Shown here piece after piece: positions 3,813 to 62,167 of a DNA stretch of 64,000 nucleotides (positions are counted from its first letter, which is position 1; the number at the start of each line of letters is the position of its first letter). The stretch lies in IMG/VR virus record IMGVR_UViG_3300020056_000009. One strand, written 5' to 3'. The position numbers were made by a program, and so were the translations under genes. The DNA comes from an uncultured virus (IMG/VR IMGVR_UViG_3300020056_000009) (lineage: Duplodnaviria > Heunggongvirae > Uroviricota > Caudoviricetes). A model generated the notes under the pieces. The model had not been told where the DNA came from, did not search any database, and was given only the letters and a program-made list of their open reading frames with translations.

Positions 3813-4030
3813 AGGTTTGGGTTAAATCTTTTGTCAGACCTTGGTTCGGTTTAATTGCTCTTCAACCCCTAATTTTTATTTATTTATTTTTGGTGTTTCC
3901 AAATGAGTGGTGGTATCATTACAAAACCCAAGCCGGACCTCTCAATATTCTTGGAACTCTTTGGCTAATTCCTGCTTACCACTATTATGATCATTGGTGG
4001 AATATGCATCAGCATCTTGTCGAAGAATAG
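3809..4030 (+). CDS. small membrane protein
   Basis: two hydrophobic stretches; ATGA coupling with uvsE and an upstream GAGGTGG SD. Confidence 0.65.
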   Translation: MKVWVKSFVRPWFGLIALQPLIFIYLFLVFPNEWWYHYKTQAGPLNILGTLWLIPAYHYYDHWWNMHQHLVEE

Positions 4031-4057
4031 ATATAGTAGCGAGAACAAAGTTCTCGC
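4028..4057 (+). promoter_or_regulatory. TATA-like box plus inverted repeat abutting ATG
   Basis: TAGATATAG then GCGAGAAC-aaa-GTTCTCGC-ATG(4058). Confidence 0.7.
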
Positions 4058-4246
4058 ATGGTATACATCTTTTGTCCTTGTGGCAAAGGTCAAATTATCG
4101 GCACTTTACGAGGAATTGTGGAACCACCAAAACCCGAAATCAATTGTCTTACTTGTAGTGAAAAATATTATTGGAAATCATTTCTCAAATGGGATGGTTG
4201 GGAAGGCAGATATTGGTATGAGTGGACTCTTAAAGCCAAATTATAA
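4058..4246 (+). CDS. small Zn-ribbon protein
   Basis: CPCG...CLTC; promoter-hairpin directly upstream. Confidence 0.7.
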   Translation: MVYIFCPCGKGQIIGTLRGIVEPPKPEINCLTCSEKYYWKSFLKWDGWEGRYWYEWTLKAKL

Positions 4247-4271
4247 ATAGTCGAGATAACAATATTATCTC

Positions 4272-6083
4272 ATGCCTGTTCGAAAAGTAGGTCCAAATTC
4301 TTATCAATGGGGAACCTCAGGTAAAGTATATTCAGGAAAAGGTGCTAAGGCCAAAGCCGAGCGTCAAGGTCGTGCTATCTACGCTTCTGGATACAAGGGT
4401 GCTGAAAGTTATAAGCCCCCAGCATCAGCCATAGCCAATGCTAAGCGTGGACTCAAACTTCGTAAAGAATGGGGTCGTGGTGGGCTGTCGCCCAGCGAGG
4501 CTGCTGCTCAAGGAATTGATTCCGGAGTAACTCGGGCTCGTAGGATCGCTTCCGGAACAGTAAGTCGTCATGATGTCCGTCGGATGTCAGCGTTTAATCG
4601 TCATCGCAAAAACTATCGTCCCGACAAGAAGATGTCTGATGGTGGCCCCACCGCTGGAACAATTGCATGGTTACTGTGGGGCGGCACCTCCGGTGTGAAT
4701 TGGGCTAAGAAAAAATCGGCTACTATGGGTGCTGAAACCTTTGGTGCGGAAGAATATTTAACTTCACAAGAAATTAAGCAACACATTGAATACACGCACT
4801 TGGACGAAAACGGAGAACCCGATTACTACTATTGGAATCCCGAATGGGATGATTTAATTTTTTCAAGAGAACAAATACCCATGACTTTGTTTGAAGATTG
4901 GAATTGGGATGACACACCTGTTAGTAGTAGGCGTTTAGAAGATATTTTAATCGGTTCACATATGAATACTCAGTATCCTACTATTGTATTAAGGGAGGAT
5001 GATGGAGAATATGATGTTATTGATGGATTCCATAGGTTGAATGCGATGCACATTCTTGGACATGAATTAGTAGACGCTTATGTTGGAAGAAATAAAAAAT
5101 CCTTAGCGGCAGAAAACTGGGGCGGAGATCCTGATGGTCCACTCGCTAAGGCATTAGCCCAAGCCCGTGAATCATTAAAGCAATCTCGAAAACCATTACA
5201 AATCACACGGTTACCTGACCCTAACCAAAAAACCCTGAAGGATTTTGAAGCCGATGTAATTACAAATCATAGACCCTATCCAGATGTATATGGTCGCTAT
5301 GGATGGAAAATAACAAGTAAATTTTGTTGGAAGTGTGGTGATTTGGACCATCATTATAGCAATTGCAAATCCACACAAAAATATACTGATGCTTTGAGTC
5401 GAAAAAAGGATATGCTGAAAGCGGTCAATGCAGCCATCAAACTTTATTCAAACAATCCAAGTGATGTTAATGACTTAAAGGAACTACGCCGTATGATTAA
5501 AAATAACCACTTTGGAATCGCTCGCCATTATTTTAATAGTTTAGATACTGTTGTAAGAGATAATATCGGTTATGATACAGAAATTAGTTTTGAAGCCGAT
5601 TGGCAAGACCTTCCTCGCAATAAGTTAGGTCAATGGCAACGCCCTGTTTCTATCACCACCCTCAATAACTTAATTGCCACAACCCCCGGCGTTCCCAAGT
5701 TATCAGAATTGTTGAATCTTTATGGTGGCGACACTCCTAATAACCGAGTTCGATTATACAATGATATGCTAACTCTTCGCATCACTACGGAAGATTTTGA
5801 AGATGATATTCCCACCTTTGAACAATCCGATGCTTATGCTTGGATTTTAGAAGAGCCTTTAGATGTCGCTGAAGAAAATCCCCAAATGACTCCGGAATAT
5901 TGGGATCGATATATCCGACATTTAGGAATGACTTCTTCACAAACGGAATTAGAATCCCGTTTAGAAAACTTAATGAATAATTTAGATTTGTTTTCTGATG
6001 AAGAAGAACAATTTGCTGAAATTAGTATGCTCATGGCTGCTCTACGCCAACAAAAGTTCATGGAAAAATATCAGGCGGAATAA
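4272..6083 (+). CDS. multi-module protein: phage-head-associated-like domain, ParB/Srx-like domain, CCHC Zn knuckle
   Basis: AKRGL..RARRIA..IAWLLWGG; PTIVL..VIDGFHRLNA; CWKCGDLDHHYSNC; modules separated by xxAE/FEAD. Confidence 0.8.
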   Translation: MPVRKVGPNSYQWGTSGKVYSGKGAKAKAERQGRAIYASGYKGAESYKPPASAIANAKRGLKLRKEWGRGGLSPSEAAAQGIDSGVTRARRIASGTVSRHDVRRMSAFNRHRKNYRPDKKMSDGGPTAGTIAWLLWGGTSGVNWAKKKSATMGAETFGAEEYLTSQEIKQHIEYTHLDENGEPDYYYWNPEWDDLIFSREQIPMTLFEDWNWDDTPVSSRRLEDILIGSHMNTQYPTIVLREDDGEYDVIDGFHRLNAMHILGHELVDAYVGRNKKSLAAENWGGDPDGPLAKALAQARESLKQSRKPLQITRLPDPNQKTLKDFEADVITNHRPYPDVYGRYGWKITSKFCWKCGDLDHHYSNCKSTQKYTDALSRKKDMLKAVNAAIKLYSNNPSDVNDLKELRRMIKNNHFGIARHYFNSLDTVVRDNIGYDTEISFEADWQDLPRNKLGQWQRPVSITTLNNLIATTPGVPKLSELLNLYGGDTPNNRVRLYNDMLTLRITTEDFEDDIPTFEQSDAYAWILEEPLDVAEENPQMTPEYWDRYIRHLGMTSSQTELESRLENLMNNLDLFSDEEEQFAEISMLMAALRQQKFMEKYQAE

Positions 6084-6114: not shown

Positions 6115-6144
6115 TATAAATAGCAGAATAATTTATTATTCTGC
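6115..6144 (+). promoter_or_regulatory. TATA box plus 9-bp inverted repeat abutting ATG
   Basis: TATAAATA-GCAGAATAA-ttta-TTATTCTGC-ATG(6145). Confidence 0.8.
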
Positions 6145-6312
6145 ATGGAGTCCCTCAACGACCATTGCGTAGTATGTGGTCAAGTTATTGACTTAGGCAC
6201 CGTATCTATTTCTCTTCAGTATCGACGAGCCCACCCTCATTGTAGTTCCGATCGATATTCTGTTAATCTTGGCCGACCTAAAATCAAGTTGGTAGACAAG
6301 AAAACTAAATAA
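6145..6312 (+). CDS. 55-aa Zn-finger protein (absent from ORF track)
   Basis: MESLNDHCVVCG...AHPHC; canonical promoter directly upstream. Confidence 0.7.
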   Translation: MESLNDHCVVCGQVIDLGTVSISLQYRRAHPHCSSDRYSVNLGRPKIKLVDKKTK

Positions 6313-6335: not shown

Positions 6336-6533
6336 GTGCACCCTACTCGGAAGATGATTAATCGGCTTATGGAAAAGGTTGAACAACATAATCAAAAGAT
6401 TTTGGAATGTTACCGTTCTATCGTCGAGTTAGAAAACGAACTCAGGAATAATCCAGACCACGAACACCAATGGCATCGAGAAAATCATGTTGCGGCACAA
6501 TCGGTATGCACAATCTGTGAGGTAATACAATGA
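6336..6533 (+). CDS. small coiled-coil/Zn-finger protein
   Basis: GTG start; HEHQW...CTIC. Confidence 0.6.
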   Translation: MHPTRKMINRLMEKVEQHNQKILECYRSIVELENELRNNPDHEHQWHRENHVAAQSVCTICEVIQ

Positions 6534-6979
6534 AGAAAATTGCAATAATGATGATAGTCTTGATGATGACGGCAGGCTGTTTGGGATCCGAGGGTCTTGA
6601 AGACATGGAGATTGGCGAGATAGTCAATCCCGAAATTATTTGGACTAACAATTCTTATCAATTTGATAATTTGTTGCCTATGGGCAACGGCAATCATACC
6701 GATTTGGTTTTGAACAACACTACGGTTGTTTATTTAGAGGTTTGGGCACGGTTCCACGAACCGTCAGCATGGGAACAAGGTTCTGTGAACCTTACCCTTG
6801 ATGGCCCCAACAATTATTCTTGGAGTTTTCAAACTACCAACACTACCAAAAATCTTTCTATCAATTTTACCGGAGCCGGAAATTATTCTTTCAGAATTAT
6901 GGCAGAAGGATCTGATGACCCCGTAGATAATCTCCCTGGAGATGCTTATGTGGTCTATACCCGTTTTGAAACTTGGTGA
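6530..6979 (+). CDS. putative archaeal lipoprotein, beta-rich
   Basis: MKK + hydrophobic stretch + AGCLG lipobox; several NxS/T sequons. Confidence 0.8.
   Translation: MKKIAIMMIVLMMTAGCLGSEGLEDMEIGEIVNPEIIWTNNSYQFDNLLPMGNGNHTDLVLNNTTVVYLEVWARFHEPSAWEQGSVNLTLDGPNNYSWSFQTTNTTKNLSINFTGAGNYSFRIMAEGSDDPVDNLPGDAYVVYTRFETW
6592..6605 (+). repeat. GGGTCTTGAAGACA copy 2
   Basis: exact match. Confidence 0.9.
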
Positions 6980-12170: not shown

Positions 12171-12205
12171 ATACATATAAATAGGTGCGAGTTTAAACAC
12201 TCGCC

Positions 12206-12424
12206 ATGGACTGCCCCCTTTGCAATTGGAAACTTAAAAATCTGCGAGAGTGGGTTACTCAAGACGGTTATTTTGGCGAAGCCAAATGTAGTCCTTGTGG
12301 CGTAACTCTCTTAGCCCAAATGGATTTATACAAAGCCTATGATAACAAACATATTCCACCTCACCTAATTTCTGAAGCCGAACAGTTGTTGTTAGCATCG
12401 GGAAAGTTAGCCACACCTCCTTAA
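12206..12424 (+). CDS. small Zn-ribbon protein
   Basis: CPLC...CSPC; TATAAATAG upstream. Confidence 0.75.
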   Translation: MDCPLCNWKLKNLREWVTQDGYFGEAKCSPCGVTLLAQMDLYKAYDNKHIPPHLISEAEQLLLASGKLATPP

Positions 12425-16537: not shown

Positions 16538-16612
16538 GTCGAATGATTCTTCTTCCGACTATATATAATCTCCGACATAACATATAAGTAGGTGCAAACC
16601 ACAGGTTTGCCC

Positions 16613-17380
16613 ATGATCGCTATCAGCATTGATTCCAAAGAATCTGATAACACCAAACATCTTTTTGAAATGTTATTGAACGCCGATGTTGTCAATCTTC
16701 CCGAAGGTGACATCAAAGTATATGAATATGACAATCCTGATAACTTTTCTCTTTTTGAACGCAAAACTTGGTCTGATGCTTATTCTTCATGGACCAGCAA
16801 GCGAATGCAAGAGCAAATCAGCCGATTGGTTGCCTCCGGAGGTCGTAACTATTTGATTATCGAAGGATCTCCTCGTGATATTTTCACCGCCAATCCTAAT
16901 CAGATTCAATCCCTCCAACAGTTTTTTAATCGTCTTACCAGCGAGGCCATTCCGGTGATTTACACCGAGTCCCTTGATGAAACTATTCGCTTTATTAGAA
17001 GTCACGCTCTCCGTATGGAAGAAAATGAGTTATATCAATTGATTCGTCCTGTCACCGTTGTAACTTCTACCAGCAATAAACATCACGCCGTTTTAGAACA
17101 AATCCCCCGGGTCGGGAAGAAACTCGCTAAGAAAATCTATCAAACCTATGGTTCTTTAGGAGATTTCGTAGTTAATTTCAAAACCACTTCCGAAGAAGTT
17201 GGCGTCAAACCTAAATCTGTTACCTATCAGAAAATCGTAGAGTTCTTAGACCAAACATGGAATCCCCAAGTAGATCGAGAAATTATCTTCCAAGCCGTCG
17301 GAACCGACCCAGACCTTACGGGTCTTGAAGACATTGCTTCTGAGCCCGAAGAAGAGAGTGAACAAAAGACGCTCTTCTGA
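16613..17380 (+). CDS. ERCC4/XPF-family structure-specific endonuclease with HhH
   Basis: IDSKE, GD, ERKTWSD, RMQEQ, LIIEG, QIPRVGKKLA; C-terminal QKTLF; start set by promoter-hairpin GCAAACC-aca-GGTTTGC. Confidence 0.9.
   Translation: MIAISIDSKESDNTKHLFEMLLNADVVNLPEGDIKVYEYDNPDNFSLFERKTWSDAYSSWTSKRMQEQISRLVASGGRNYLIIEGSPRDIFTANPNQIQSLQQFFNRLTSEAIPVIYTESLDETIRFIRSHALRMEENELYQLIRPVTVVTSTSNKHHAVLEQIPRVGKKLAKKIYQTYGSLGDFVVNFKTTSEEVGVKPKSVTYQKIVEFLDQTWNPQVDREIIFQAVGTDPDLTGLEDIASEPEEESEQKTLF
17320..17333 (+). repeat. GGGTCTTGAAGACA copy 3
   Basis: exact match. Confidence 0.9.
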
Positions 17381-17415
17381 TAAACTATATATTGGTGGTT
17401 TCATAAACCATAACT

Positions 17416-18162
17416 ATGGCTCATCGTTTTATGAATCTTGATGTCGTTTCGGCACTCAACCAACTGCAAACCGAATCGCAAGAAATCAACACCGCTTTCT
17501 TTGACCCACCTTACAACATCGGTTTTAGATACTCTAATCTTGTTGATGACAACCTTCCCGAAAACGAATATCACGATCTTATCGGAGATACTTTTGAAGC
17601 CCTCAAACCCATTTTGGCAGCCGATGGTTCGGCTTTCTTGGTTCACTATCCCGAAGCCTGTGCTCGATTACTTCCCATTATTGAGTCCAAAGGTTATCGA
17701 CTTCAACAATGGATTTCTTGGGTTTATCCCAGCAACATTGGTATGACCAAAAAGCGATTCACTACGGCTCACCGTGCTCTTCTGTGGTTTGTTCATGTAG
17801 ATTGCGAACAACCTAAGTTTAACAACAAGGCTGACCCTATGCCCTACAAAAATCCGACCGACCCCCGAGTTCAAAAGCAAATCGCCAAAGGCAGTAAGGG
17901 CGTTAGTCCTTATGATTGGTGGGAAATTAACATGGTTAAAGCAGGTTCGGCAGAACATAAAGGATGGTATAACCAAATCCCCTATGACTTGATTAAACGC
18001 ATGGTGTTGTCTACCACCGACCCCAACGATGTAGTCTTGGATGGTTTCGCAGGGTCTTGTAGCACATGGCCGGTATGCAACGACCACAATCGCACCGCCA
18101 TTTTGGTTGATTTAGATCCCAACTCTAAGAAACACTTTGATGATTTTATGAATGGGTCTTGA
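17416..18162 (+). CDS. beta-class amino-DNA methyltransferase (DPPY, probably N6-adenine)
   Basis: FDPPY N-terminal; VLDGFAGS C-terminal. Confidence 0.9.
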   Translation: MAHRFMNLDVVSALNQLQTESQEINTAFFDPPYNIGFRYSNLVDDNLPENEYHDLIGDTFEALKPILAADGSAFLVHYPEACARLLPIIESKGYRLQQWISWVYPSNIGMTKKRFTTAHRALLWFVHVDCEQPKFNNKADPMPYKNPTDPRVQKQIAKGSKGVSPYDWWEINMVKAGSAEHKGWYNQIPYDLIKRMVLSTTDPNDVVLDGFAGSCSTWPVCNDHNRTAILVDLDPNSKKHFDDFMNGS

Positions 18163-18179: not shown

Positions 18180-18317
18180 ATGTTAGGATGGTTGTTTTCA
18201 CTTTTGGGCTATAATAAAAAGCCCCAACGCCACGAATTCGATCAAGCGTTGGAAGTTATTGAAGAGTATAATGATGAATCGAAACTCCGTAGGGAAAGAA
18301 TGAAAAATAATAAATAG
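18180..18317 (+). CDS. 45-aa peptide (absent from ORF track)
   Basis: GGTGGTG SD; MLGWLFSLLGY...; fills the intergenic gap. Confidence 0.5.
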   Translation: MLGWLFSLLGYNKKPQRHEFDQALEVIEEYNDESKLRRERMKNNK

Positions 18318-18338
18318 TCGATTAGATGACTAATCGAC
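18309..18338 (+). promoter_or_regulatory. TATA box plus 9-bp inverted repeat abutting ATG
   Basis: AATAAATA-GTCGATTAG-atga-CTAATCGAC-ATG(18339). Confidence 0.8.
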
Positions 18339-18803
18339 ATGGCAATTTATTCGCTGTGGGGTGAAACCGATTTGCCAAAATCGGAAAAAATTGTTGTGGG
18401 TCAAATAGATTTAGACACCGGAGCCATTTACTTAAATTATAAGGCTCATAATGTTGGCATATACATTACTTCTGATGGACAAAAGTATCAAAGTTTTACT
18501 TCTGATATGGGAGATATCCCCAGCATAGCCAATCAGCATGGACTTTCCGAAGAAGCCAGTTTAGCCGGATACGCTCGTCGATCAGATTCTTTAGGTGGCT
18601 TTAAATATAGTATTCTTAAAGAAGTGGTTGATGAAGTATTATCTCTACCACCTCAATTATTTGTTGGCCTTCGGGCTTTAGAAAAAATTAAAAATGGAGA
18701 GCGAGCAGTTACTACTATTCTTTGGGACCACCTTATCAGCGAACCAAAGGTTCCTATGGCTATCAATTATTTGAGTTTACTCAAAACCGAAAAGCATAAA
18801 TAG
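18339..18803 (+). CDS. hypothetical protein, AIN tag
   Basis: ends PMAINYLSLLKTEKHK. Confidence 0.75.
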   Translation: MAIYSLWGETDLPKSEKIVVGQIDLDTGAIYLNYKAHNVGIYITSDGQKYQSFTSDMGDIPSIANQHGLSEEASLAGYARRSDSLGGFKYSILKEVVDEVLSLPPQLFVGLRALEKIKNGERAVTTILWDHLISEPKVPMAINYLSLLKTEKHK

Positions 18804-19909: not shown

Positions 19910-20632
19910 ATGACCCGACTACAAGCCAAACTACGAGTGCCCCTTGCCAAAAATATCCTACGGGCTTTAGAAGCCATTAACGAAGAAGGTATTCTGCAAT
20001 GGGATGAAAACGGATTGTCTACCATGTTGGTAGATGGCAATCGTTTCAAAATGCTTCGAGTGGTAGCCCCTGCGGATAGTTTTATTGATTATTCTTATGT
20101 CGGCTTAAACCCGATTAGAGTCGGCGTTATTTTTAGTCGTATGGGACAAATCATCAAAACCCTGACCGCTAAAGATGAATTGGTCTTCACTTATGAAAAC
20201 GATCGGTTTTATCTCCAAGCCAACGGGATTCAGCAAAATATCAAGTTATTGAGATTAGACCTCATGCATGAAGTTACCGAATGGCCTTCTTTAGACCACA
20301 CCTATGATGCCACTATCCCCGGCAAAGAGGCTAACGATTTCCTCAAAACTTCTGGCAAAAATCTCACCTTCGTTATTTCTTCTTCCGAAGATTCCGAAGA
20401 AATCCAATGGAACACCGGTTCCGGCGATGAAGCAATTTCATGGACTCCGATTAACCAACAAGTTACCGGAACGATTGGATCTTCTCAATTTACGACTGAA
20501 GAAGTTAAATCTGCCCTAACTGCTGCTCCTAAAGAAGACCTCACCCTACGAGGTTCTGCTGATAGCCCTATTGAGTTTCAATGGACTTTTGAAAACATCA
20601 ATATGACCGCCTTAGTCGCCCCAAGGAAGTGA
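19910..20632 (+). CDS. pcna: PCNA-like sliding clamp (divergent)
   Basis: ~240 aa; INEEGIL..GLSTMLVD..F.DY; ends PIEF..ALVAPRK. Confidence 0.8.
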   Translation: MTRLQAKLRVPLAKNILRALEAINEEGILQWDENGLSTMLVDGNRFKMLRVVAPADSFIDYSYVGLNPIRVGVIFSRMGQIIKTLTAKDELVFTYENDRFYLQANGIQQNIKLLRLDLMHEVTEWPSLDHTYDATIPGKEANDFLKTSGKNLTFVISSSEDSEEIQWNTGSGDEAISWTPINQQVTGTIGSSQFTTEEVKSALTAAPKEDLTLRGSADSPIEFQWTFENINMTALVAPRK

Positions 20633-21887: not shown

Positions 21888-21905
21888 CCGAAACATTGTT
21901 TCGGT

Positions 21906-42146: not shown

Positions 42147-42177
42147 ATATAAATAGAAGAATCACCTATGGTTCGCC

Positions 42178-43481: not shown

Positions 43482-43518
43482 GCAAAAATATATATAGTCG
43501 ATTGACGAATCAATCGTC

Positions 43519-44020: not shown

Positions 44021-44428
44021 TTGATTTGGACCGCAGTTTTAATTGGTGCTGCACCTATGGCAATTATGTTGCTTACTACTGATAAATTATTAAAGAATCA
44101 ACGACCTGTCGTTTATTACGGTGGACTTATTGGAGCCGGATTATTGGCTTGGCAAATTACCGAATGGTTAGACCGTCGATACCGACTTTCTCGACCCGAT
44201 CTTTTTGGTGCTGAATATATGATGGGTTTCGATAATGGTGATTTCGAAATGTGGCATTGGGCAGATGTCCCCGAAGATATTATCAAGCAAGGAAAAAATG
44301 CTATTGCTGAGTATATTTGGATGGAAGGCGAACTCTGTGATGGTGAAGAATGGGATGGGATGGAAGAAGACTTGGAAGATTCTGGCGATGATTGGCAACC
44401 TCTTTTAGATACGCTCCAAAAAGTATAA
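44021..44428 (+). CDS. membrane protein with acidic C-terminal module
   Basis: two TM segments, then LFGAE, then an acidic domain. Confidence 0.75.
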   Translation: MIWTAVLIGAAPMAIMLLTTDKLLKNQRPVVYYGGLIGAGLLAWQITEWLDRRYRLSRPDLFGAEYMMGFDNGDFEMWHWADVPEDIIKQGKNAIAEYIWMEGELCDGEEWDGMEEDLEDSGDDWQPLLDTLQKV

Positions 44429-44454
44429 ATAAGAGATAACCCTCAGTTATCTCT
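44424..44454 (+). promoter_or_regulatory. TATA box plus 9-bp inverted repeat abutting ATG
   Basis: TATAAATA-AGAGATAAC-cctca-GTTATCTCT-ATG(44455). Confidence 0.8.
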
Positions 44455-44829
44455 ATGAACTTTGATTGGGACGATGTTTCTATCTCTAATCCCCAAGTAA
44501 TCATGGCTCTCAATCAATTAAACCAAAAGTTTGGATTGGGCAAAGTTTGGTATAGAACTTCTTCATCTGGCACCGGACTTCATGTCATGATTGCCGATTT
44601 ATATCCTGTAAACAAAAATCCCTATCATTTAGAATTGCGACCCTTTGATTTTGCTGATGATTTGGTATTCCAATGGCGACAGTATTTAGCCGCCGAACCT
44701 TTTGATTTGGAGTGTTCGGGAAGACTTACGGCTGACCGAGAACGAGCGGCTCACGGTTTCCGAATTGGTCGGATCTTTTCTAATAAAAATGGCTCGAATT
44801 CGGGACCTTGGGAGTGTTATTATGGATGA
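44455..44829 (+). CDS. small AEP/primase-polymerase-like protein (tentative)
   Basis: N-terminal FDWDD and RTSSSGTGLHV (SGxGxH). Confidence 0.5.
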   Translation: MNFDWDDVSISNPQVIMALNQLNQKFGLGKVWYRTSSSGTGLHVMIADLYPVNKNPYHLELRPFDFADDLVFQWRQYLAAEPFDLECSGRLTADRERAAHGFRIGRIFSNKNGSNSGPWECYYG

Positions 44830-44974
44830 ATTATCTCGGGCTACGGCTTTAATGATTTCTCACCTTATGATTTCTAACAATTTCTTTATTGAGGGTAAAC
44901 CCACCGAAGACCCCCACGAAGTAGTTGCTGCCATGCATCAAAGTAAAAAAATTATGTCAGTTCCAAAAAAATAA
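44822..44974 (+). CDS. 50-aa hypothetical protein
   Basis: GGGAGTG SD; overlaps the upstream stop. Confidence 0.5.
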   Translation: MDELSRATALMISHLMISNNFFIEGKPTEDPHEVVAAMHQSKKIMSVPKK

Positions 44975-45026
44975 TCGTTATTTTATAACGATAGATATAA
45001 ATAGGAATGAATGAGAATCATTCATT

Positions 45027-45419
45027 ATGACCGAACTAAGATATTGGGACAGGGTAGGCTTTATGGTTACCCGAGAGCAAGCCGAAGATATTGCTGGACG
45101 CATGAATGGTGCTACCGGAAAGACTCTTGATGATGATATTGAAGAGTTCGTAGAAAACCGAGTCGATCTTTCAGAAGTTCTTATTGAAATCAAAACTCTT
45201 TTCGACAATCCCCCGGCTTCTGACCAACAACTTAGTGACGATAACTTGGCTATTTTGGCTCTCATGGATTTTGAAAACAACAAGAAATCGTTTATCAAAG
45301 CCAAAAAGGAAGAAGGCATGGAATTGGCTGAAGCCAAAGAAGCCTATGAGTTTGAAAAGGCTCGCTTAGTGCGAGAATCTTTGGGACTCCCCGAACCCGA
45401 GGATCTTGAAGAGGAGTGA
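45027..45419 (+). CDS. hypothetical acidic helical protein
   Basis: promoter-hairpin AATGAATGA-gaa-TCATTCATT-ATG. Confidence 0.8.
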   Translation: MTELRYWDRVGFMVTREQAEDIAGRMNGATGKTLDDDIEEFVENRVDLSEVLIEIKTLFDNPPASDQQLSDDNLAILALMDFENNKKSFIKAKKEEGMELAEAKEAYEFEKARLVRESLGLPEPEDLEEE

Positions 45420-46646: not shown

Positions 46647-46677
46647 ATATAAATAGTTGAAGCGATTAAAAAAGGGT

Positions 46678-47466
46678 ATGGCCTATTTCATTCGTCGTTA
46701 TCAATCAGGCGTCAAAAATTCAGGCACACAAGATATTCTTACTTCCGAAGTAGAAATTCCAATTCCAACTTTTGTTATGTTGGCTGAATCTACGGGACCC
46801 GGTAAGTATTTACTTTGTGAGCGTGGACCCGGTATTCGTGGCTTCCGCAAAATTACAGATTGCGTTATCGAACCCCCGGTTATCGACACCGTATCTAATG
46901 ATTATTTAGAAGACGAAGAACTTTTGTTTGCTGCCGAAAACTCAGTTTCGGTCAAGCGTAATCTCAAACTCTCTGATATGAGTAATGAAGACCTCATGGA
47001 TTTAATGTCTTCTATGGAATCTGCCAGCATTAGTTCTGATGCTGAATTTTCCAAGTTCCGCAAAGATCTTGCGGCAGTTAATCGTGAAATGCGTCGTCGT
47101 ATGATGACGGCAGAACATTCTGCCGAAAACGCTTTCACCGGACCCTCTACTGCTAAAATGCCTGTGGCTTCGGCCATGTTTGGTATTAGTCCTATGACCG
47201 CAGGGGCCATTGGAGCCTTAGTGGGTGGACTCGGTGGAGTATTGGCTACGGCATTTTACTATCGTAGCAAAATTGATAATTTGGGTGCTGAAATGGAATC
47301 GGTCAAGAAAATGCTTTCTGAAGCCGAAGTTGCTATTAAGCGAGCCGAAAGTAACGCTGAAAAAGCAGCCCAAACAGCACAAAAGGTTTCGGAGTTCGAT
47401 CAAAATAAGTTTTTTGACATGAACCTGCTTTCCAATTATCAAACTCGAACTCGCCCCGGTTTCTGA
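46678..47466 (+). CDS. membrane-anchored coiled-coil protein
   Basis: TATAAATAG upstream; FAAE/HSAE/LGAE; TM AIGALVGGLGGVLATAFY. Confidence 0.8.
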   Translation: MAYFIRRYQSGVKNSGTQDILTSEVEIPIPTFVMLAESTGPGKYLLCERGPGIRGFRKITDCVIEPPVIDTVSNDYLEDEELLFAAENSVSVKRNLKLSDMSNEDLMDLMSSMESASISSDAEFSKFRKDLAAVNREMRRRMMTAEHSAENAFTGPSTAKMPVASAMFGISPMTAGAIGALVGGLGGVLATAFYYRSKIDNLGAEMESVKKMLSEAEVAIKRAESNAEKAAQTAQKVSEFDQNKFFDMNLLSNYQTRTRPGF

Positions 47467-47477
47467 GGTGATCCGTA

Positions 47478-47969
47478 ATGGATATGGAAAAAATGGCATC
47501 AATGTTGGACTCGTATAGAAAGTTGTTAGAAAAAGAGCGTGATGTAGTTATTAGAGAACAATTTGGACAATTTATGGACCAAATCGGTATTTCTGATCCT
47601 ACGGTTATTGATAATTATTACGAATCTTTTCAATCTATGCTTTCTGAAATCGATCATGATGAAGTATCTCTTCATGAAAAACTAAAAGGCTGTATCGAAT
47701 CTGATTTCTTTCATCAAGTTTTAACTGCTAAAACCAGCAACCGAGAACGAGAACTTCGTAAAATCACTTCACTTCTATCGGAGTTTATCCAAAAATCTGC
47801 AGATAATTCTACTTCTGACGAACAATTCTTGCAATCAATTTTAGCCGAAACTCTTCGCACCGCTGCCGATGCATTAGAAACTAACCGAGATTCAGAACAA
47901 TCGGTTAATGAGGCTTGGGTTGATGCTTTACGATTAGGATATGATATCTTTATTGGCCGAAAGTTATAA
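47478..47969 (+). CDS. hypothetical helical protein
   Basis: GAGGTGA SD. Confidence 0.8.
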   Translation: MDMEKMASMLDSYRKLLEKERDVVIREQFGQFMDQIGISDPTVIDNYYESFQSMLSEIDHDEVSLHEKLKGCIESDFFHQVLTAKTSNRERELRKITSLLSEFIQKSADNSTSDEQFLQSILAETLRTAADALETNRDSEQSVNEAWVDALRLGYDIFIGRKL

Positions 47970-47994
47970 ATATGATTGTGACTAAGGGATAATT

Positions 47995-49050
47995 ATGTCT
48001 GATTTCGACAATCTTATTCGTTCCGATGATTTCGATGAGGTCGAAAGACTTTTAGCCAAGGAACGAGCCGAAAAGAAAACTTCTAAAACCGAAAAGAAAA
48101 AGTCCCTCATGGAAATGGTTGCCGGTTCTAACGATGCTGCTGCTTTGGCTCGTCGTCTTAATGTAGATCCCGATATGTCGGAAAAGGTTTTAGTGCCTCT
48201 CTTAAATTTCCTTGATAAATATGGTGTTGGTGGGGCAGTAGCCGAATCATCTACGGCTCAAGCCGCCACAGGACTCTTTGAATTTTTGGGAGATATTACG
48301 CCTGTAATCAAACAAAGTATGGATTATTTTGCAGGACGACAAAATGAACTTAGCCAACAAGACCTTGATTTCCTAAATCAAATTAAGGATGCCCAAACCG
48401 GAGATATGGATGGTTTATTTATTGGAGAAACTATGGAAGAAACTCCTGCCGAACCTACACCACCTCCGGCACCCAAAGAACAACCGGGACAAATCCCCTT
48501 AGATGTAGACCCCTTCCGAGATGGTGTCGATTGGACTAAGGTAGTGGGAGAACAACCAAAACAAACCGTTATTCCTGAAGCCGAGCCTAATGAAGCCTAT
48601 ATTCAAAATTTGGAAAGATTGGCGGCTGCTTCGGGAATGAGTATGGACGATGTTAAGCGTTCTGATCGACAAGCCAAGACTAATAACTTTGGACGAGTAG
48701 AAAAAGAAATTGATTATTCTGATGCTTTCAATATTGATTTAGGATTAGAAAAGATTAATGCCGCTATGAATCAAGAAAAGAACAAATTGCAATCCTCTTC
48801 TAAAATCCAATTTGATGAGTCCGTTCCTGTTCCCGATTCGGCTACGGCTTTTGACCCTCTCGAAACTCCTAATTACACCACCCCATCATTTACCGGAACT
48901 TTACAATCCGTAGACCAATTAGCAGAAAATGCTGGAGTAGACCTTGACGCTCCGTGGGTTGAAGAAGATTATGACCCTGCTGATGATGATATTGGCTATG
49001 ATTTACCCACCATAGAACCTGATGAGGAGGTTTTAGGGGATGACGACTGA
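47995..49050 (+). CDS. hypothetical acidic protein
   Basis: TATAAATA 30 nt upstream; 351 aa. Confidence 0.85.
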   Translation: MSDFDNLIRSDDFDEVERLLAKERAEKKTSKTEKKKSLMEMVAGSNDAAALARRLNVDPDMSEKVLVPLLNFLDKYGVGGAVAESSTAQAATGLFEFLGDITPVIKQSMDYFAGRQNELSQQDLDFLNQIKDAQTGDMDGLFIGETMEETPAEPTPPPAPKEQPGQIPLDVDPFRDGVDWTKVVGEQPKQTVIPEAEPNEAYIQNLERLAAASGMSMDDVKRSDRQAKTNNFGRVEKEIDYSDAFNIDLGLEKINAAMNQEKNKLQSSSKIQFDESVPVPDSATAFDPLETPNYTTPSFTGTLQSVDQLAENAGVDLDAPWVEEDYDPADDDIGYDLPTIEPDEEVLGDDD

Positions 49051-49456
49051 TATTAATCCGGTTTGGAGTCGTTTTTGTGCTATCCAATTAGAAACTTGGT
49101 TGGAATGGCTTCGTAATATCCATTTGCGATCTTATTTTGATTTGGGTGACCGTTTTATTATGCTTAATCCTTATTATTATCCCTCCGCAGAAGACCAAGA
49201 AGCCTTGCCTATTTTTAATCGTTTAATGATTAACGAAGATTTTATTGGCTCATTATCTGATAAAGGAATCTCGGTTTGGGCTAATTCTGGTTTCCAAGAT
49301 TTTGTCGAGGCTTTGCGACCCTATGGCAATCGTTATCCCGAAATTGCCCAAATTATTACTTATTTTGAAACTCACTTGCAATGGTTCCGACGAGTGTATC
49401 AATTCCTTCGTGCAGAAATGATTATGCAATTACGAGAAGAAGGTCGTTCAATTTGA
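49040..49456 (+). CDS. hypothetical protein
   Basis: overlaps the upstream stop; GAGGAGG SD. Confidence 0.75.
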   Translation: MTTDINPVWSRFCAIQLETWLEWLRNIHLRSYFDLGDRFIMLNPYYYPSAEDQEALPIFNRLMINEDFIGSLSDKGISVWANSGFQDFVEALRPYGNRYPEIAQIITYFETHLQWFRRVYQFLRAEMIMQLREEGRSI

Positions 49457-49494
49457 TGCGAAGTTTTATATAGTTGGCGTAATCAATATAGAAT

Positions 49495-51639
49495 ATGCCT
49501 ACGCTGACGATTGACCAATGTATGACCATCATGGGTTATCTCAATATGGAGGCGTTTTCCAAGAAAACTCTTACTGCTATTGATGATGATGTTGTTGCCT
49601 TTTTAAACAATAATGGATATACTATTCCTGTTTGGGGTTCAGGTCGTGGAGCCAATAACCCGGTTATCGGTGGAGGATCTCAATATTCTGCCATGCTTTC
49701 TGATAAAAAGTTTTGGAATGATGCCAATATTCAAGCCTATTTAGGATTTACGGGACAAGGCGAGGCCGACGATTATACTCGAAATGTTTCTGCCCCACCT
49801 GCCACTAATACCGGAACTTCTTCCGGTGCAAAATTGAATTCTGCTGGAGATAAACTTCCTTCTCGAAATCTTGGACCTGAATATTTTGACCACAATGGCA
49901 TGATGGCAAAAAACATTTTGTCTATCGCTTCCACAGGTATGCCTGATACTACATGGATTGCCTCCGCTAAAAAGGTAGCCGCTGGTGCTAACTATCTTTC
50001 AGAATTTCCGGCCCAATTAGGTGACACCTATGTTCTTGGAAATGCTTTGTTACATCCACAATTAGCGTCTACAACGCCTACAACGCCTACGGCGACGCCA
50101 ACTCCTGCCCCTACGACACCTATGGTGTCAGATGATGAAGAAACGACTACTGAACCTGCGGTGTCAGAAGAAACCGTAGAAGAAGTTGTTACTCCACCTG
50201 CTGCTAACAATAACTTTGGAACCCAACCTGATAAAGAACTTGTAGTTAGCATTTCTAATTCAGGACGGGCCCTCAATGATGCTACTTTCGCTTCTCGTGA
50301 AACCAACAACAATGGATTTTATCCTTATCCCGGAACTTTGATTGTTCCTCTTCTTGCTGACACGCAAAATGCTCTCTTACAGCCCCCGGCAACTGCTAAA
50401 GCCGCCCCTGTTTTAGATCTTTTTGCTGACAATGTAGATACATCTTCTGTCGCTCCGGCATCAACTCCCCGAGCACAATTAGTTTTTAATGGCGATATTG
50501 TTCTTAACACCCCCCATGGCAGTTATAAATTAACTTCTTACGATGAACTCCAAGTTCGTTGGGTTCGTGGAAAAGAAGAAGTCTCCGGATTACTTGCGAA
50601 AAAGGGAGGCACAGAAATTTTCCGAATTGATTCTTTGTCGATTCAACCTTTTACATTCTCTGATGTTTTCAATTATATTGATGGCATTTCTACTCCAGGA
50701 CCTTGGGTAGCCCCCGATGTTCTTGCTAACGCTTCCGAAGTATCACTTCCATTTATTTATGCAGGACCTCAACGAGATTCCGATTATGGAATTACTACCG
50801 TTAGTAGTAGCAAAGATGATTACAACGAAGCCCTTAATGAACTTCGTGATAATGGCGTAATCTTTGGATACTATGGCGTTACTACTCAACCTATTCAAGC
50901 CAGCCTTTCGGTTTATGAAGGTGGAATCGCAGATAGTGATGGCACTTTGCGTGATGAAAATTATTGGTTATCTCGTGTGGCTGGAGAAACCTCTGACGAT
51001 CTCGATGTTTCTACTTCCTACTTGGCAGTTAATCTTTTGATGTCGGGCGATACGGGACAAAACTCCGATCTCTTTGTTGGTTCCGGAGAAATGCGTCAAG
51101 AAACTTTAATTTTCCCAGGCGATGAGCAAGATTTGGATTTGTTGCTAACACCCTTTATTGATGATAAAACTGTTATTGGAGAATTAGAAATTGATTCCGA
51201 AGGTCTTCGACAACTAATGCTCAAAGATATTATGACTTCCACCCCACAAACTGAAGTAGATGATGATGGTAATCCTACGGGAGAAACCACCGTTACGGAT
51301 GCTACTTTAGTCTTTGAAAACCTAACGACCTCCGAAGAAGTCAAGATTTCTATTCCCAATCCTGATGACGAATTCGCTGCAAAAGACCTTTTGGGTAATT
51401 TAATTCGAGGCACCGTCGAATCTATTGAACTCCGTTCTGGTGATGCTGCTGCTGCTCACGAAAAGCAAAAAATCCTCCGACGCCAAGAGCGTATGGGTTC
51501 TAATTGGAATATTCGTAACAGTAGCAAGACTGATCAAAATGCTACCAGCACCGTTGCCTTTGAAAAGGGCCGAAAATACTATATAGTAGGGCGACACGAT
51601 GGTAAACCAATCCTATTGGAATTGGAATTGGAGTTCTGA
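49495..51639 (+). CDS. 714-aa hypothetical protein with Pro/Thr linker
   Basis: long ORF; first gene of the MoxR block. Confidence 0.85.
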   Translation: MPTLTIDQCMTIMGYLNMEAFSKKTLTAIDDDVVAFLNNNGYTIPVWGSGRGANNPVIGGGSQYSAMLSDKKFWNDANIQAYLGFTGQGEADDYTRNVSAPPATNTGTSSGAKLNSAGDKLPSRNLGPEYFDHNGMMAKNILSIASTGMPDTTWIASAKKVAAGANYLSEFPAQLGDTYVLGNALLHPQLASTTPTTPTATPTPAPTTPMVSDDEETTTEPAVSEETVEEVVTPPAANNNFGTQPDKELVVSISNSGRALNDATFASRETNNNGFYPYPGTLIVPLLADTQNALLQPPATAKAAPVLDLFADNVDTSSVAPASTPRAQLVFNGDIVLNTPHGSYKLTSYDELQVRWVRGKEEVSGLLAKKGGTEIFRIDSLSIQPFTFSDVFNYIDGISTPGPWVAPDVLANASEVSLPFIYAGPQRDSDYGITTVSSSKDDYNEALNELRDNGVIFGYYGVTTQPIQASLSVYEGGIADSDGTLRDENYWLSRVAGETSDDLDVSTSYLAVNLLMSGDTGQNSDLFVGSGEMRQETLIFPGDEQDLDLLLTPFIDDKTVIGELEIDSEGLRQLMLKDIMTSTPQTEVDDDGNPTGETTVTDATLVFENLTTSEEVKISIPNPDDEFAAKDLLGNLIRGTVESIELRSGDAAAAHEKQKILRRQERMGSNWNIRNSSKTDQNATSTVAFEKGRKYYIVGRHDGKPILLELELEF

Positions 51640-59880: not shown

Positions 59881-60918
59881 ATGAGTGGAATTAGTAGTAG
59901 TGCCTCGGGCGGACCTTGTAATTATCAAGGTAATAGTGTTGCCATTGAAGATGAAGATGATGATAACGATTTCGTTAATCCTTTGGAATACTTCTTTGAA
60001 GAAATTGCCCCACCCTATGTAGATTCTCCTAAAGCCCAACGCTATCCTGAAGTTCCTATTCGCACCACAGATTGGGATATCAGTCAAGGAACCAAACCAG
60101 CCATTAAATCTACTTTAGTGCCATTCCCTTTTCCAGGAACAGGTCCTGCTATGCTGGTAGACCAACCGATTCCTAAAGGCACCGAAGGAAAAAACACCGC
60201 TATTTTGATTTCTATTGATCGTTCAGGATCTATGGGTGGCAATGCCTTCCCCGTTCAAGGTCGAAGTCTAAGCCGTATTGAAGTGGCTCGTGGAATTGTT
60301 TGTGCTCTCATTAGATTGGCTCAAAATCAAGGTGACCATTTCGCAGTATTATCATGGGGCTCCGGTGTTTATACCGAATGGCCCCAATCACCACCCGGCA
60401 ATTTGGATTCGTGGGCGATGCCTTTGTCTACCAACTATGATGAAGCCTTAGATTATTTTAAACAATATGAATCAGGAGGCAACTGTCCTTATCCACCTAT
60501 TCCTTGCACCGATGGAACTACTTTCCAATTTGCTACCCAAGCCTTAGTAGATAAAATTCGTGGGACGGGAATGGAATCCGTTATTTCTTTTGTAGTCACC
60601 GATGCTTTTGCAGATTATGGTAGCAACGGGGCCCGAAATATGTTTTCAGGATTCTTTAGTCCTGATCAAGCCACCGGAATTCCGATGGACACTATGCTTC
60701 GTCGTGGGGATTCTGCAGTTTATTATTTCGGTATTGACAACTTAGGCAACGCTCCTACTTGCCGAAGAACTGCCGAACAATTGAATCAAATGATTGACGA
60801 CCATTATGGAAAACCACAACGACCCAAATCGGCTCACTTCTTCCCCTTAGACCCCGCTAATCCTAATGCGGCTCGTGAAATGGCAGAACTTATGTTAGAA
60901 TTGGCAGAACACGATTAA
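59881..60918 (+). CDS. von Willebrand factor A domain protein
   Basis: MIDAS IDRSGSM, DGTTF, FVVTDA. Confidence 0.88.
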   Translation: MSGISSSASGGPCNYQGNSVAIEDEDDDNDFVNPLEYFFEEIAPPYVDSPKAQRYPEVPIRTTDWDISQGTKPAIKSTLVPFPFPGTGPAMLVDQPIPKGTEGKNTAILISIDRSGSMGGNAFPVQGRSLSRIEVARGIVCALIRLAQNQGDHFAVLSWGSGVYTEWPQSPPGNLDSWAMPLSTNYDEALDYFKQYESGGNCPYPPIPCTDGTTFQFATQALVDKIRGTGMESVISFVVTDAFADYGSNGARNMFSGFFSPDQATGIPMDTMLRRGDSAVYYFGIDNLGNAPTCRRTAEQLNQMIDDHYGKPQRPKSAHFFPLDPANPNAAREMAELMLELAEHD

Positions 60919-60960
60919 GCAACATAAAAGTTCATATAGTAGAACCGCCTAAGAATAATC

Positions 60961-62124
60961 ATGTCTGAAGTAATTGATTTACCAGACCGTGTGGTTTTGG
61001 GTAAAGATATTCACTTCCCTGCTTATGGCAGCGATTCTATTATTTCTCAAGTGCTTTTCGTTACCGGAAAGCGTGGCTCTGGGAAATCTTGGACTGCTGC
61101 CGTGATTATGGAAGAGTATCATCGATTAGGACTCCAATTCGTTTGTTTCGATGCTCTTGACGCTCACGGTCATATTGGCGAACAATTACCCAATGTAGTT
61201 CCCCTTCGTCCCGGACCAGCGGAAACCATTAATATGAAAGAATTGGTAGAAACTCTCCGAAACACTCCCAAATCAGTTATTATTTCTATGGCGGGAATGC
61301 CCTTAGCCAAACAACAAGAAATGATTACCGAATATTGTGAGGCATTGTTAGAAGGCACTTTAGGAAAAGGAATTATGACTGTCTTTGAAGAATGTCAAGA
61401 CTTTATTCCTCAAATGGGCAAACCTAACTCGGCTGATGCTATTGTCCGACTTTGTAAATTGGGTCGGGCTTTAGGCTATGGAGCCACTTTGATTTCTCAG
61501 CGACCTGCGGGTGTTGGCAAAGAAGCACTTTCTCAGGCTTCTATTTACCTCGTTCACAATGTTATTAACGCTCGGGATCTCAAAGCCCTTGATGACCAAT
61601 TGTCTTTCGGAACTGATAAAAAAACCATTAAGCGAATGTTGGATGGTATCGCTAAAGCCAAAAAAGGAGAAGTTATTGCCTATGCTCCCGAGTTTTATCG
61701 AGATCGAGGTTATGTCGTCGTTGGTAAAATCCGAGGAGATCGAAAAACCGAACACAAAGGTCACAACATTGAAGTCAAAGATGCTCGGGAACGATTTTCT
61801 GAAGAAATTGATGACCATCGATCGTTATCTTCTTTAGACCGTCCTTTAGAAATCAACAAACCCCCGGTATCTAAACCCACTTTTTCTACTAATGTTGGTG
61901 GTGGCGTAGTCCCCCCATCAACTAAGGAAATTTTGATTCCTACCGAAAAGAAATCCGAGTGGTCACCAGAACCCGAAGAACCTGATTTTGAATATGATTT
62001 AGAATCCGAATCGGATTCGGAAGAATCTGATGTTAATCCTGTTGTCGTAGCCACTTTTGTCGGCGGAGTTATTCTCACCGGAACTTTAGGTTTCTTGGTT
62101 TATCGTGGCTTTAATTCAGCATGA
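60961..62124 (+). CDS. HerA/FtsK-superfamily ATPase with C-terminal membrane anchor
   Basis: GKRGSGKS, VFEECQ, LGRALG, ISQRP; ends VVVATFVGGVILTGTLGFLVYR. Confidence 0.88.
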   Translation: MSEVIDLPDRVVLGKDIHFPAYGSDSIISQVLFVTGKRGSGKSWTAAVIMEEYHRLGLQFVCFDALDAHGHIGEQLPNVVPLRPGPAETINMKELVETLRNTPKSVIISMAGMPLAKQQEMITEYCEALLEGTLGKGIMTVFEECQDFIPQMGKPNSADAIVRLCKLGRALGYGATLISQRPAGVGKEALSQASIYLVHNVINARDLKALDDQLSFGTDKKTIKRMLDGIAKAKKGEVIAYAPEFYRDRGYVVVGKIRGDRKTEHKGHNIEVKDARERFSEEIDDHRSLSSLDRPLEINKPPVSKPTFSTNVGGGVVPPSTKEILIPTEKKSEWSPEPEEPDFEYDLESESDSEESDVNPVVVATFVGGVILTGTLGFLVYRGFNSA

Positions 62125-62167
62125 TTTTAGGGAAAATCATAAATAGGTGGCAACCAAAAGGTTGCCC

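Follow-up and report, generated by a model that had tools for sequence, protein, structure and literature searches.

The stretch of DNA analysed here, hereafter the window, comprises 64,000 nucleotides of an uncultured virus (IMG/VR record IMGVR_UViG_3300020056_000009). It carries 40 genes that are each led by a copy of one promoter, a TATA-like box followed at a nearly constant distance by the start codon, and in about half of these copies the short spacer between box and ATG contains an inverted repeat. We describe these promoters and their spacer hairpins, which we tentatively read as elements that would act at gene junctions in read-through RNA.

A recurrent TATA promoter with hairpins in its spacer

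The exact motif TATAWATAG occurs 25 times in the window compared with 1.52 expected, a count attained in 0 of 100 shuffles. With up to one mismatch to this motif there are 80 boxes, 45 of which have an ATG at an offset of 29-32 from the first T (T1), and this set of 45 underlies the promoter counts below. Among the boxes with up to one mismatch the ATG lies at 30 nt in 32 and at 31 nt in 10, and no other offset from 20 to 44 is represented by more than 8 boxes. Forty of the 45 lead open reading frames (ORFs) of at least 40 amino acids (aa); the remaining five (18602 and, on the minus strand, 22787, 7988, 1049 and 849), with ORFs of 2-32 aa and no hairpin, look like chance boxes. In the logo of the 45 boxes TATAWATA, spanning -30 to -23 relative to the ATG, is nearly invariant; A occupies the three positions ahead of the box (-3 to -1) in 27-38 of the 45, G is found at box position 9 in 42 and at box position 12 in 36, A at box position 21 (-10 from the ATG) in 38, C or T at -1 in 41 and G right after the ATG in 28.

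This is the anatomy of an archaeal promoter, with a purine-rich block resembling the B recognition element (BRE), an 8-bp TATA element about 23-30 nt ahead of the start, and a pyrimidine at -1 followed by a purine at +1 as initiator (Inr). Scored against an anti-Shine-Dalgarno string, a Shine-Dalgarno (SD) sequence of -6 kcal/mol or stronger is present at 0 of the 40 promoter-led genes, compared with 35% of the 51 other called gene starts and 4% of random sites. At those other starts it takes the form GGAGG or GAGGTGAT / GGTGA, 5-8 nt ahead of the ATG, and is used by operon-internal genes. Because BRE/TATA/Inr anatomy is combined with the lack of an SD in any of the 40, the promoter-led genes look leaderless, and a transcription start at or adjoining the ATG is therefore the natural reading. 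Leaderless first genes together with SD-led internal genes are the archaeal pattern; in a block of large genes, the hairpin-less boxes 46648, 47965 and 49465 lead operons with SD-led internal genes. RNA data were available as assembled contigs of four RNA libraries, from a strain 95-99% identical to the window (9-13% of sampled words, depth about 1-20). Their beginning 15-27 nt past the ATG at 43519 (4/4 runs), 46678 (2 runs) and 37771 (1 run) is a weak hint from contigs that do not show starts, ends or strand, may include DNA carry-over and are uninformative for the parts left uncovered. The distance to the ATG is fixed at 30/31 nt, an SD is lacking, the logo is of the BRE/Inr type, and relatives of the virus encode PolD, TBP and TFB (see below); on these grounds we reject a T4-late-like TATAAATA promoter, a bacterial -10 box, and a promoter of the T7 or yeast-mitochondrial kind with its start at the G of TATAG. 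SD sites concealed in hairpin-less spacers are ruled out by the SD scan of the promoter-led genes.

Hairpins were measured as the longest perfect stem with a loop of 3-8 nt in the stretch from G9 to -1. The stem is at least 6 bp in 18, at least 7 bp in 16 and at least 8 bp in 11 of the 45 spacers. Compared with the 16 observed, 1000 dinucleotide shuffles of the 45 spacers gave a mean of 0.45 (maximum 3) with a stem of at least 7 bp, and for the 32 spacers of offset 30 the 13 observed compare with 0.07 (maximum 2) in 1000 column-preserving shuffles. Stems of this length are found at 0 of the 51 other called gene starts and in 0.5% of 5000 random 22-mers. Under a looser rule, which accepts a stem of at least 6 bp or an RNA minimum free energy no higher than -5 kcal/mol, a hairpin is present at 21 of the 40 real promoters, with stems of 6-9 bp, loops of 3-8 nt and sequences that are unrelated between promoters. 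Hairpin promoters are scarcer past 46 kb, in the block of large genes (1/6 vs 20/34 elsewhere).

Pooling the window with its relatives gave 43 distinct hairpin spacers, in 27 of which the 3' end of the stem adjoins the ATG and in 40 of which it is no more than 2 nt away. The register of the stem is not uniform, the arms beginning at G9 or at G12, and the dyad centre is restricted to box positions 19.5-21, with the loop always over the conserved A(-10). Fourteen spacers in the G9-to-(-1) register (9 from the window, 5 from relatives) were hand-picked for looking paired, so that only the comparison with controls carries weight: 95.2% of their cells pair, compared with 75.2% in shuffles (0/500), and 5 of the 9 pairs change on both sides.

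An earlier note on this DNA had described some 40 genes starting about 30 nt after TATAWATAG(NN)G, archaeal TATA promoters with transcription starting at about the ATG, and hairpins in roughly half of them that end at or within 2 nt of the ATG. The promoter set, its 30/31-nt offset and G12, and the hairpin and abutment counts agree with that description; the logo, the absence of SDs and the PolD, TBP and TFB of the relatives point to the same promoter type. All 14 stems that it listed are present at the coordinates given there, those at 6123 and 27882 do differ by a compensated A-T to G-C pair, and the comparison with shuffles that it proposed gives the excess reported above.

The TATA-to-start interval is a classical site of archaeal repressors, and one explanation for the palindromes is that they bind dimeric repressors that block polymerase recruitment between TATA and start. 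Some arms do fall into small families (GNNGAAT, GCGATGAT, GCAACC and GATAAC), and the GAAGAATCAC.. hairpin is kept at 20 of 22 positions ahead of proteins that are just 39% identical. However, more than 25 unrelated arm sequences without a shared half-site occur among the 43 hairpin spacers, which makes a set of sequence-specific regulators unlikely. Every stem position stays paired, even the freely varying ones, and this would call for many regulators. Compensated changes are unexpected for a fixed protein specificity, and a scan of 41 small window proteins detected no DNA-binding family. Known archaeal operators, such as the TGM palindrome of the TrmB family, also lie between TATA and start, but those of one regulator share a half-site whereas the arms in the window are unrelated and covary. 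We regard operators as a very improbable explanation.

Hairpins in the relatives of the virus

The HerA/FtsK-type ATPase and a 109-aa protein, used as queries, retrieved four IMG/VR contigs, 84-166 kb long and with a CheckV completeness of 34-65%, of which two have inverted terminal repeats. The window is syntenic with the relative G001 (pieces L002-L010), which encodes PolD DP2, a DP1-like subunit, PCNA, an MCM-like protein, a Zn-ribbon TFB and TBP. TBP is present in 4/4 of the relative contigs and TFB in 3/4, and the relatives also encode a Hjc-related nuclease, Endo VII, Fpg, a Cu/Zn SOD fusion and several DNA methylases. A PCNA homologue missed by Pfam lies in the window at 19910-20632 (tblastn with G001 PCNA, 34% identity, 1e-32). 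Judged by these sequences, the window is part of a large double-stranded DNA virus of archaea and, because its syntenic relatives encode PolD, PCNA, TBP and TFB, probably of one with its own promoter-recognition factors.

Of 315 relatives found in a metagenome scan, the 80 best were retained. The boxes of relatives are all TATA-like 9-mers (TATAAATAG, TATAAGTAG, CTTAAATAG, ATTAAATAG, TTTATATAG or TTTAAGTAG) with the ATG at the same 30/31 nt. Across lineages the box thus changes while the distance to the ATG, the G at -22/-19 and the A at -10 are preserved. Lineage-specific boxes with a kept spacing fit co-evolution of the promoter with virus-encoded TBP/TFB, and virus-borne TBP/TFB would explain the unusual uniformity of the promoters.

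Stems of at least 7 bp are found in 6 of 21 distinct spacers of the window lineage (L015, L016 and L030), in 5 of 60 spacers of G001, in 4 of 78 of relatives about 80-83% identical in the query protein and in 4 of 188 of more distant relatives. The counts exceed shuffles in every group, and hairpins are far rarer outside the window lineage. Where orthologous promoters can be compared, two fully compensated pairs distinguish 36328 from its counterpart in L015 (93% protein identity), and two compensated pairs distinguish 36623 from its counterpart in L016, where a G:T has become G:C. In L016 the hairpin of 38301 is swapped for an unrelated palindrome and the orthologues of 43489, 44424 and 44996 have none; a relative with 94% identity in the query protein shows hairpin loss at orthologous promoters. 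In three lineages further away, unrelated hairpins occupy the orthologues of 44424. The covariation across relatives that the earlier note had proposed to look for is present at 36328 and 36623, accompanied by swaps and losses. Its view that pairing rather than sequence is selected gains support from these compensated pairs in close relatives and from covariation that exceeds column composition. The column-shuffle test, the 95.2% vs 75.2% pairing, the compensated pairs of 36328 and L015, and the unrelated hairpins of 44424 together point to structure over sequence.

Another possibility is that the hairpins are largely a non-adaptive by-product of template-switch (fold-back) errors and of gene conversion among about 100 near-identical promoters, with inverted repeats persisting mainly in the unconstrained TATA-ATG spacer if G(-22/-19), A(-10) and Y(-1) are kept. 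Whole spacers are replaced between close relatives (proteins 81-94% identical), palindrome families recur at non-orthologous promoters, hairpin abundance is lineage-specific and there is no strand signal. The stems look as if they were born perfect and then decayed: decayed hairpin copies are common within clusters of near-identical spacers, and stem and non-stem columns vary alike there (18/128 vs 11/50, p=0.26). Over the whole window there are 71 perfect hairpins of at least 7 bp, compared with 18-33 in ten shuffles; outside the promoter junctions, within genes too, 46 are seen vs 25.9 expected (sd 4.7, 1.8-fold), and in the hairpin-poor G001 the corresponding excess is weak (73 vs 59.6, sd 6.5, 1.2-fold). 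This genome-wide excess may be a lineage-specific template-switch bias. However, the enrichment is about 36-fold in the spacer vs 1.8-fold elsewhere, and keeping about 40% of the spacers perfect would require, on our estimate, births per spacer that rival the summed point-mutation rate of about 17 sites. A by-product is also hard to reconcile with unrelated hairpins at 44424 orthologues in at least three further lineages whose overall rate is 2-5%, or with the GGAAACAA cluster, in which 3/3 variable columns fall within the 8 non-stem positions. We consider a by-product unlikely to be the main explanation.

Gene junctions and a possible action in read-through RNA

Upstream stop codons lie at a median of 6 nt from the TATA box, often within it, and a T-run of at least 5 between stop codon and ATG is found at 0 of 27 window junctions and at 0-2% of those in relatives. 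Because the stops are about 6 nt from TATA and there is no oligo-T terminator, the roughly 18 free bases between TATA and ATG are nearly the sole non-coding DNA of a junction. Plus-strand genes contain 16 T-runs of at least 6 in the sense direction vs 45 A-runs, which suggests that oligo-T is a live terminator that the virus avoids on the sense strand. Read-through of the junctions seems to be built in, and RNA-library contigs bridge the junctions 29102 and 42148. Among 29 tandem junctions a hairpin lies in the spacer in 16, between the upstream stop and TATA in 6, and in at least one of these places in 19. Where there is room of at least 20 nt ahead of the box, a hairpin is found there in 5 of 8 junctions, compared with 0.23 in shuffles (maximum 2 of 500). 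The palindrome of the minus-strand promoter at 23059-23091 also lies 22 nt upstream of the plus-strand box 23103. The five of eight roomy junctions with an upstream hairpin, taken with 0 of the 51 other starts, argue for a junction rather than a promoter logic.

We tentatively propose that the junction hairpins act in read-through RNA, as an archaeal counterpart of the promoter-early stem-loop (PeSL) cassettes of T4-type phages, a reading that we hold to be possible, though short of probable. Polymerases started upstream would read through the junctions, and the palindromes would fold as hairpins in the resulting RNA. There they would mark where the upstream message ends, whether by blocking 3'-to-5' decay or as a point of attenuation or processing, and would keep the next SD-less AUG unused on the long transcript, each gene then being expressed chiefly from its own leaderless mRNA. 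On this proposal the hairpin would lie within the promoter only for room, its loop held over A(-10) and its arms using G(-22 or -19) and pyrimidine(-1). The repeated cassettes probably also recombine, as in T4-type phages, and this would explain the whole-spacer swaps between close relatives. Bacterial intercistronic stem-loops and repetitive extragenic palindromic (REP) elements halt 3'-exonucleases and fix a stable 3' end of the upstream message. The window hairpins resemble these in being sequence-variable, without a U-tract and at cistron boundaries, and differ in that the known elements are bacterial and not inside a promoter.

A number of observations weigh against this proposal. T-runs of at least 4 follow the stem in 3 of 20 hairpin genes vs 4 of 20 hairpin-less ones (p=0.40), and the stems run into the ATG and coding sequence of ordinary T content (0.305 vs 0.329). 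Archaeal termination is reported, in the available parts of two papers, to rest on U-tracts and aCPSF1 (PMC8716108, PMC7515710), and a plain terminator role is therefore unsupported. RNA folds of the sense and antisense strands are equally stable (-4.48 vs -4.62 kcal/mol), and G:T vs A:C mismatches stand at 4:3, 5:1 and 6:5 in three counts where selection on RNA should favour G:U. Five of 11 promoters without a long co-directional upstream ORF still have a hairpin. The divergent junction 16538-16612 has an oligo-T guard on each incoming strand, and transcription from either side is unlikely to reach its two hairpins. Among the five upstream hairpins, the one at 23589-23612 is perhaps inside a 30-aa ORF. 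Relatives share the compact, terminator-less junctions yet mostly do so without hairpins, and the equal variation of stem and non-stem columns and the hairpin excess outside junctions, both described above, count in the same direction. A terminator made of hairpin plus U-tract is ruled out in both orientations by the T-run counts, and the use of oligo-T by relatives in place of the window's hairpins is ruled out in that they lack oligo-T too. The earlier note had offered an RNA hairpin that ends or cleaves read-through transcripts as one of two ideas; we find it the better of the two, although no U-tract follows the stems.

An alternative is control of the promoter at the level of DNA. The palindrome, at the -10/-11 melting region, would extrude as a hairpin or cruciform, or alter the cost of melting, and in this way would tune or switch initiation by host RNA polymerase with viral TBP/TFB, for example as a temporal class dependent on supercoiling or replication. 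The stems are almost purely Watson-Crick with no preference for G:U, the dyad centre is confined with A(-10) always in the loop, hairpins are present at the divergent junction where RNA is not expected, and hairpin promoters are rarer past 46 kb, all of which would fit control in DNA. The enrichment in relatives, which concerns the spacer and not the upstream region, and the family's own TBP and TFB fit it too. However, half of the promoters function without a hairpin, as do most relatives that have this box, hairpins are lost at orthologous promoters of close relatives, and similar hairpins occur upstream of BRE/TATA. GC-containing arms beside the start site should impede melting, and at 7-9 bp the arms are also short for cruciform extrusion in a mesophile. 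Overall, DNA-level control appears rather unlikely to us.

A bolder version would be a structure-coded promoter class, in which a DNA hairpin or cruciform at -10 serves as a sequence-independent switch for temporal classes through viral TBP/TFB and host polymerase. Such a class would depend, for instance, on supercoiling, replication or single-stranded DNA, and would be an archaeal counterpart of the hairpin promoters of coliphage N4; we think it quite unlikely. The promoters of the N4 virion RNA polymerase contain a DNA inverted repeat near the start, and these form-conserved hairpins are read by the single-subunit polymerase of the phage. In the window the inverted repeat also lies just upstream of the start, centred near -11/-12, but half of the promoters have no hairpin and the TATA box is presumably read by TBP/TFB. 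No RNA polymerase family was found in 39 + 41 window proteins or in 127 G001 proteins of at least 150 aa, although a very divergent enzyme is possible, the four largest window proteins having no PDB relative. We know of no TBP-dependent system with N4-style hairpin promoters. The other idea of the earlier note, hairpin- or cruciform-assisted initiation as a promoter architecture, finds no support in these comparisons in the form put forward there: 19 of the 40 promoters lack a hairpin, relatives have few (5/60, 4/78 and 4/188), hairpins are lost or lie upstream of the promoter, and no polymerase of the N4 kind was detected.

A further possibility is processing of the read-through RNA: endonuclease cleavage at the hairpin's 3' foot would release a 5'-terminal AUG and so make the downstream gene translatable from long transcripts too. 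The stem touches the ATG in 27 of the 43 hairpin spacers and ends within 2 nt of it in 40, the promoter-led genes lack an SD and read-through is expected. This abutment is, however, also explained by the loop over A(-10) and the pairing of G(-22/-19) with -1, hairpins upstream of BRE/TATA would leave leaders of 60-90 nt, and every hairpin gene already has its own promoter; among the scanned window proteins there is no nuclease candidate. We judge processing at the AUG to be improbable. As between action in RNA and action in DNA, the sequence tests that we ran do not decide.

Known promoter cassettes, and the virus itself

In the PeSL cassettes of T4-type phages, stem-loops lie between the -35/-10 boxes, over them or immediately ahead of the start, and in the available part of that report the stem-loops are described as terminators of upstream transcription and as recombination sites (PMC2839356; Arbiol et al., 2010). 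As far as that text goes, the window shares with them a repeated strong consensus promoter and stem-loop at junctions of small, mostly unknown genes, a stem-loop that can sit in the untranscribed promoter core at a position that varies between cassettes, and upstream genes that stop at the cassette edge; its cassettes may also resemble theirs in being recombinogenic. It differs in its archaeal BRE/TATA and leaderless genes as opposed to sigma70 -35/-10 and SD, and in stems that are AT-rich to mixed and mutually unrelated whereas PeSL stems are GGGG...CCCC. The window has no U-tract or other terminator proxy, and a likeness in terminator activity and mini-circles would be by analogy. The intergenic repeats of halovirus HF2 likewise present many copies of one promoter cassette at junctions; the class I repeat contains CTTTAAGT, which resembles the TTTAAGTA box of relatives G001-G004, and in one of the repeats a conserved motif has given way to a 9-bp inverted repeat (PMC8707807). 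Unlike the window spacers, the HF2 repeats are conserved in sequence over 29-58 bp, and the available part of that paper does not describe structure-only hairpins between TATA and start (PMC8707807). A study of anti-defence promoters, in the part available, reports sequence-conserved motifs and inverted repeats over the BRE (PMC11065993).

In the literature searched, palindromes between TATA box and start codon were not described for archaeal viruses. The earlier note's statement that the architecture is undescribed holds to that extent, and needs qualifying to the extent that T4-type PeSL cassettes, as the available text presents them, put stem-loops inside promoters (PMC2839356). We rate the finding, by analogy, as a cassette of the PeSL kind that is built on an archaeal leaderless promoter. 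Should the hairpins act on read-through RNA, a terminator-free archaeal genome would still give each gene its own message, and the idea of a promoter/stem-loop cassette would extend from T4-type phages to an archaeal TBP/TFB system; if they act on DNA, this would be the first structure-dependent TATA promoter. In either case about 40 near-identical promoters, half of them with a hairpin, and natural compensatory variants in relatives provide a ready-made mutant series.

The virus family is notable in itself for genomes that extend to at least 150-166 kb and have their own TBP, TFB and PolD. No description of this family was found in the literature searched, and the available portions of papers on magroviruses and Poseidoniales viruses (including PMC11706807) do not mention PolD, TBP or TFB. 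The window had no megablast or tblastn match in a phage collection, no tRNA genes and no Rfam families; a PHROGs search of its proteins gave almost nothing, and PDB sequence searches with its four largest proteins found no relative. A protein atlas search with the ArsA-type ATPase returned mixed taxa without a hint of the host, and a contig scan with a relative's PolD found only cellular PolD 36-39% identical (Methanolobus and a Halobacteriales MAG), which gave no host assignment. The class II (B12-dependent) ribonucleotide reductase (25797-27830 in the window, 127176-129191 in G001) is 78% identical between the two, compared with 27-67% for most other shared proteins, and upstream of it lies a 667-aa protein with a HNH/homing-endonuclease-like C-terminus.

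Table 1. Promoters, hairpins and genes with their coordinates in the window (or in pieces of the relative G001)
Feature	Position	Strand	Remark
Box TAGATATAG 4028-4036, 8-bp hairpin 4039-4057, ATG 4058	4028-4060	+	62-aa Zn-ribbon ORF 4058-4246
Box TATAAATAG, 7-bp hairpin 4253-4271, ATG 4272	4242-4274	+	603 aa
Box, 9-bp hairpin 6123-6144 (GCAGAATAA/TTATTCTGC), ATG 6145	6115-6147	+	
Box, 6-bp hairpin GCGAGT/ACTCGC, ATG 12206	12176-12208	+	-8.0 kcal/mol
Divergent promoter pair	16538-16615	.	Without co-directional upstream gene on both sides
Divergent pair, minus side: box 16567-16559, imperfect hairpin 16538-16559, ATG 16537		-	
Divergent pair, plus side: box 16583-16591, 7-bp hairpin 16594-16610, ATG 16613		+	
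Box TATATATTG, 6-bp hairpin, ATG 17416	17386-17418	+	DNA methylase
Box AATAAATAG, 9-bp hairpin 18317-18338, ATG 18339	18309-18341	+	
Box TATATATTG, 8-bp hairpin 21887-21905, ATG 21906	21875-21908	+	Offset 31
Box 23091-23083, 8-bp hairpin 23063-23081, ATG 23061	23059-23091	-	
Box TACAAATAG, 9-bp hairpin 27882-27903 (GCAGAATAG/CTATTCTGC), ATG 27904	27874-27906	+	
Two-hairpin junction: hairpin 28158-28178, imperfect spacer hairpin of box 28193, ATG 28223	28158-28225	+	First hairpin directly past upstream stop
10-bp hairpin 28688-28711, box 28729, ATG 28760	28688-28762	+	Hairpin at upstream stop; spacer without hairpin
Box TTTATATAG, 9-bp hairpin 29111-29133	29102-29134	+	Takes in AT of likely ligase start 29132
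Box TATAAGTAG, 8-bp hairpin 30298-30316, ATG 30317	30287-30319	+	
8-bp hairpin 35368-35387, box 35428, ATG 35458	35368-35460	+	Hairpin past upstream gene; spacer without hairpin
Box, 8-bp hairpin 36336-36357, ATG 36358	36328-36360	+	
Box, 9-pair hairpin 36631-36652, ATG 36653	36623-36655	+	One G:T
Weaker box TTAATATAG (2 mismatches), 8-bp hairpin 37753-37772	37740-37773	+	Takes in AT of ATG 37771; outside the 45-box set
Hairpins 38266-38293, box 38301, 9-bp spacer hairpin 38309-38330, ATG 38331	38266-38333	+	First hairpins over upstream stop; 1089 aa
Box, decayed copy of the 38309 hairpin (GAAGAATCA.. with mismatches), ATG 42178	42148-42180	+	ArsA-type ATPase
Box TATATATAG, 7-bp hairpin 43499-43516, ATG 43519	43489-43521	+	
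Box TATAAATAA, 9-bp hairpin 44432-44454, ATG 44455	44424-44457	+	
Hairpins 44968-44992, box 44996, 9-bp spacer hairpin 45006-45026, ATG 45027	44968-45029	+	First hairpins upstream of box
Hairpin-less examples of the same promoter	46648-49497	+	Boxes 46648, 47965 and 49465
Hairpin 62121-62140, box CATAAATAG at 62138, 7-bp spacer hairpin 62149-62166, ATG 62168	62121-62170	+	First hairpin over upstream stop
TFB of G001	L003:1914-2900	+	
PolD DP2 of G001	L004:14782-18348	+	
DP1-like subunit of G001	L009:5642-7006	-	
TBP of G001	L009:8369-8932	-	

Longest-ORF calls can be misleading in this genome. The gene of box 4028 is 4058-4246 and not the ORF 3987-4250, which is read in a different frame, 29132 is the most likely start of the ligase (longest ORF 29111-30283), and 6530-6979 is one SD-led gene with a lipoprotein-like signal MKKIAIMMIVLMMTAGC where the longest-ORF call gives 6485-6926. 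A 30-aa hydrophobic ORF (23564-23656) overlaps the preceding stop codon by ATGA. In each of the four RNA libraries the TSP3-repeat gene at 33503-35503 reaches a word depth of hundreds to thousands and shows many joints and loose ends, and this is most likely cross-matching with repeat-rich genes of other organisms and not expression. Finally, we note that the hairpin-less spacer of the 351-aa gene behind box 47965 has TTGTGACT in common with the orthologous G001 promoter at 108236, the two proteins being 32% identical, and that this shared string may be a sequence-specific site.

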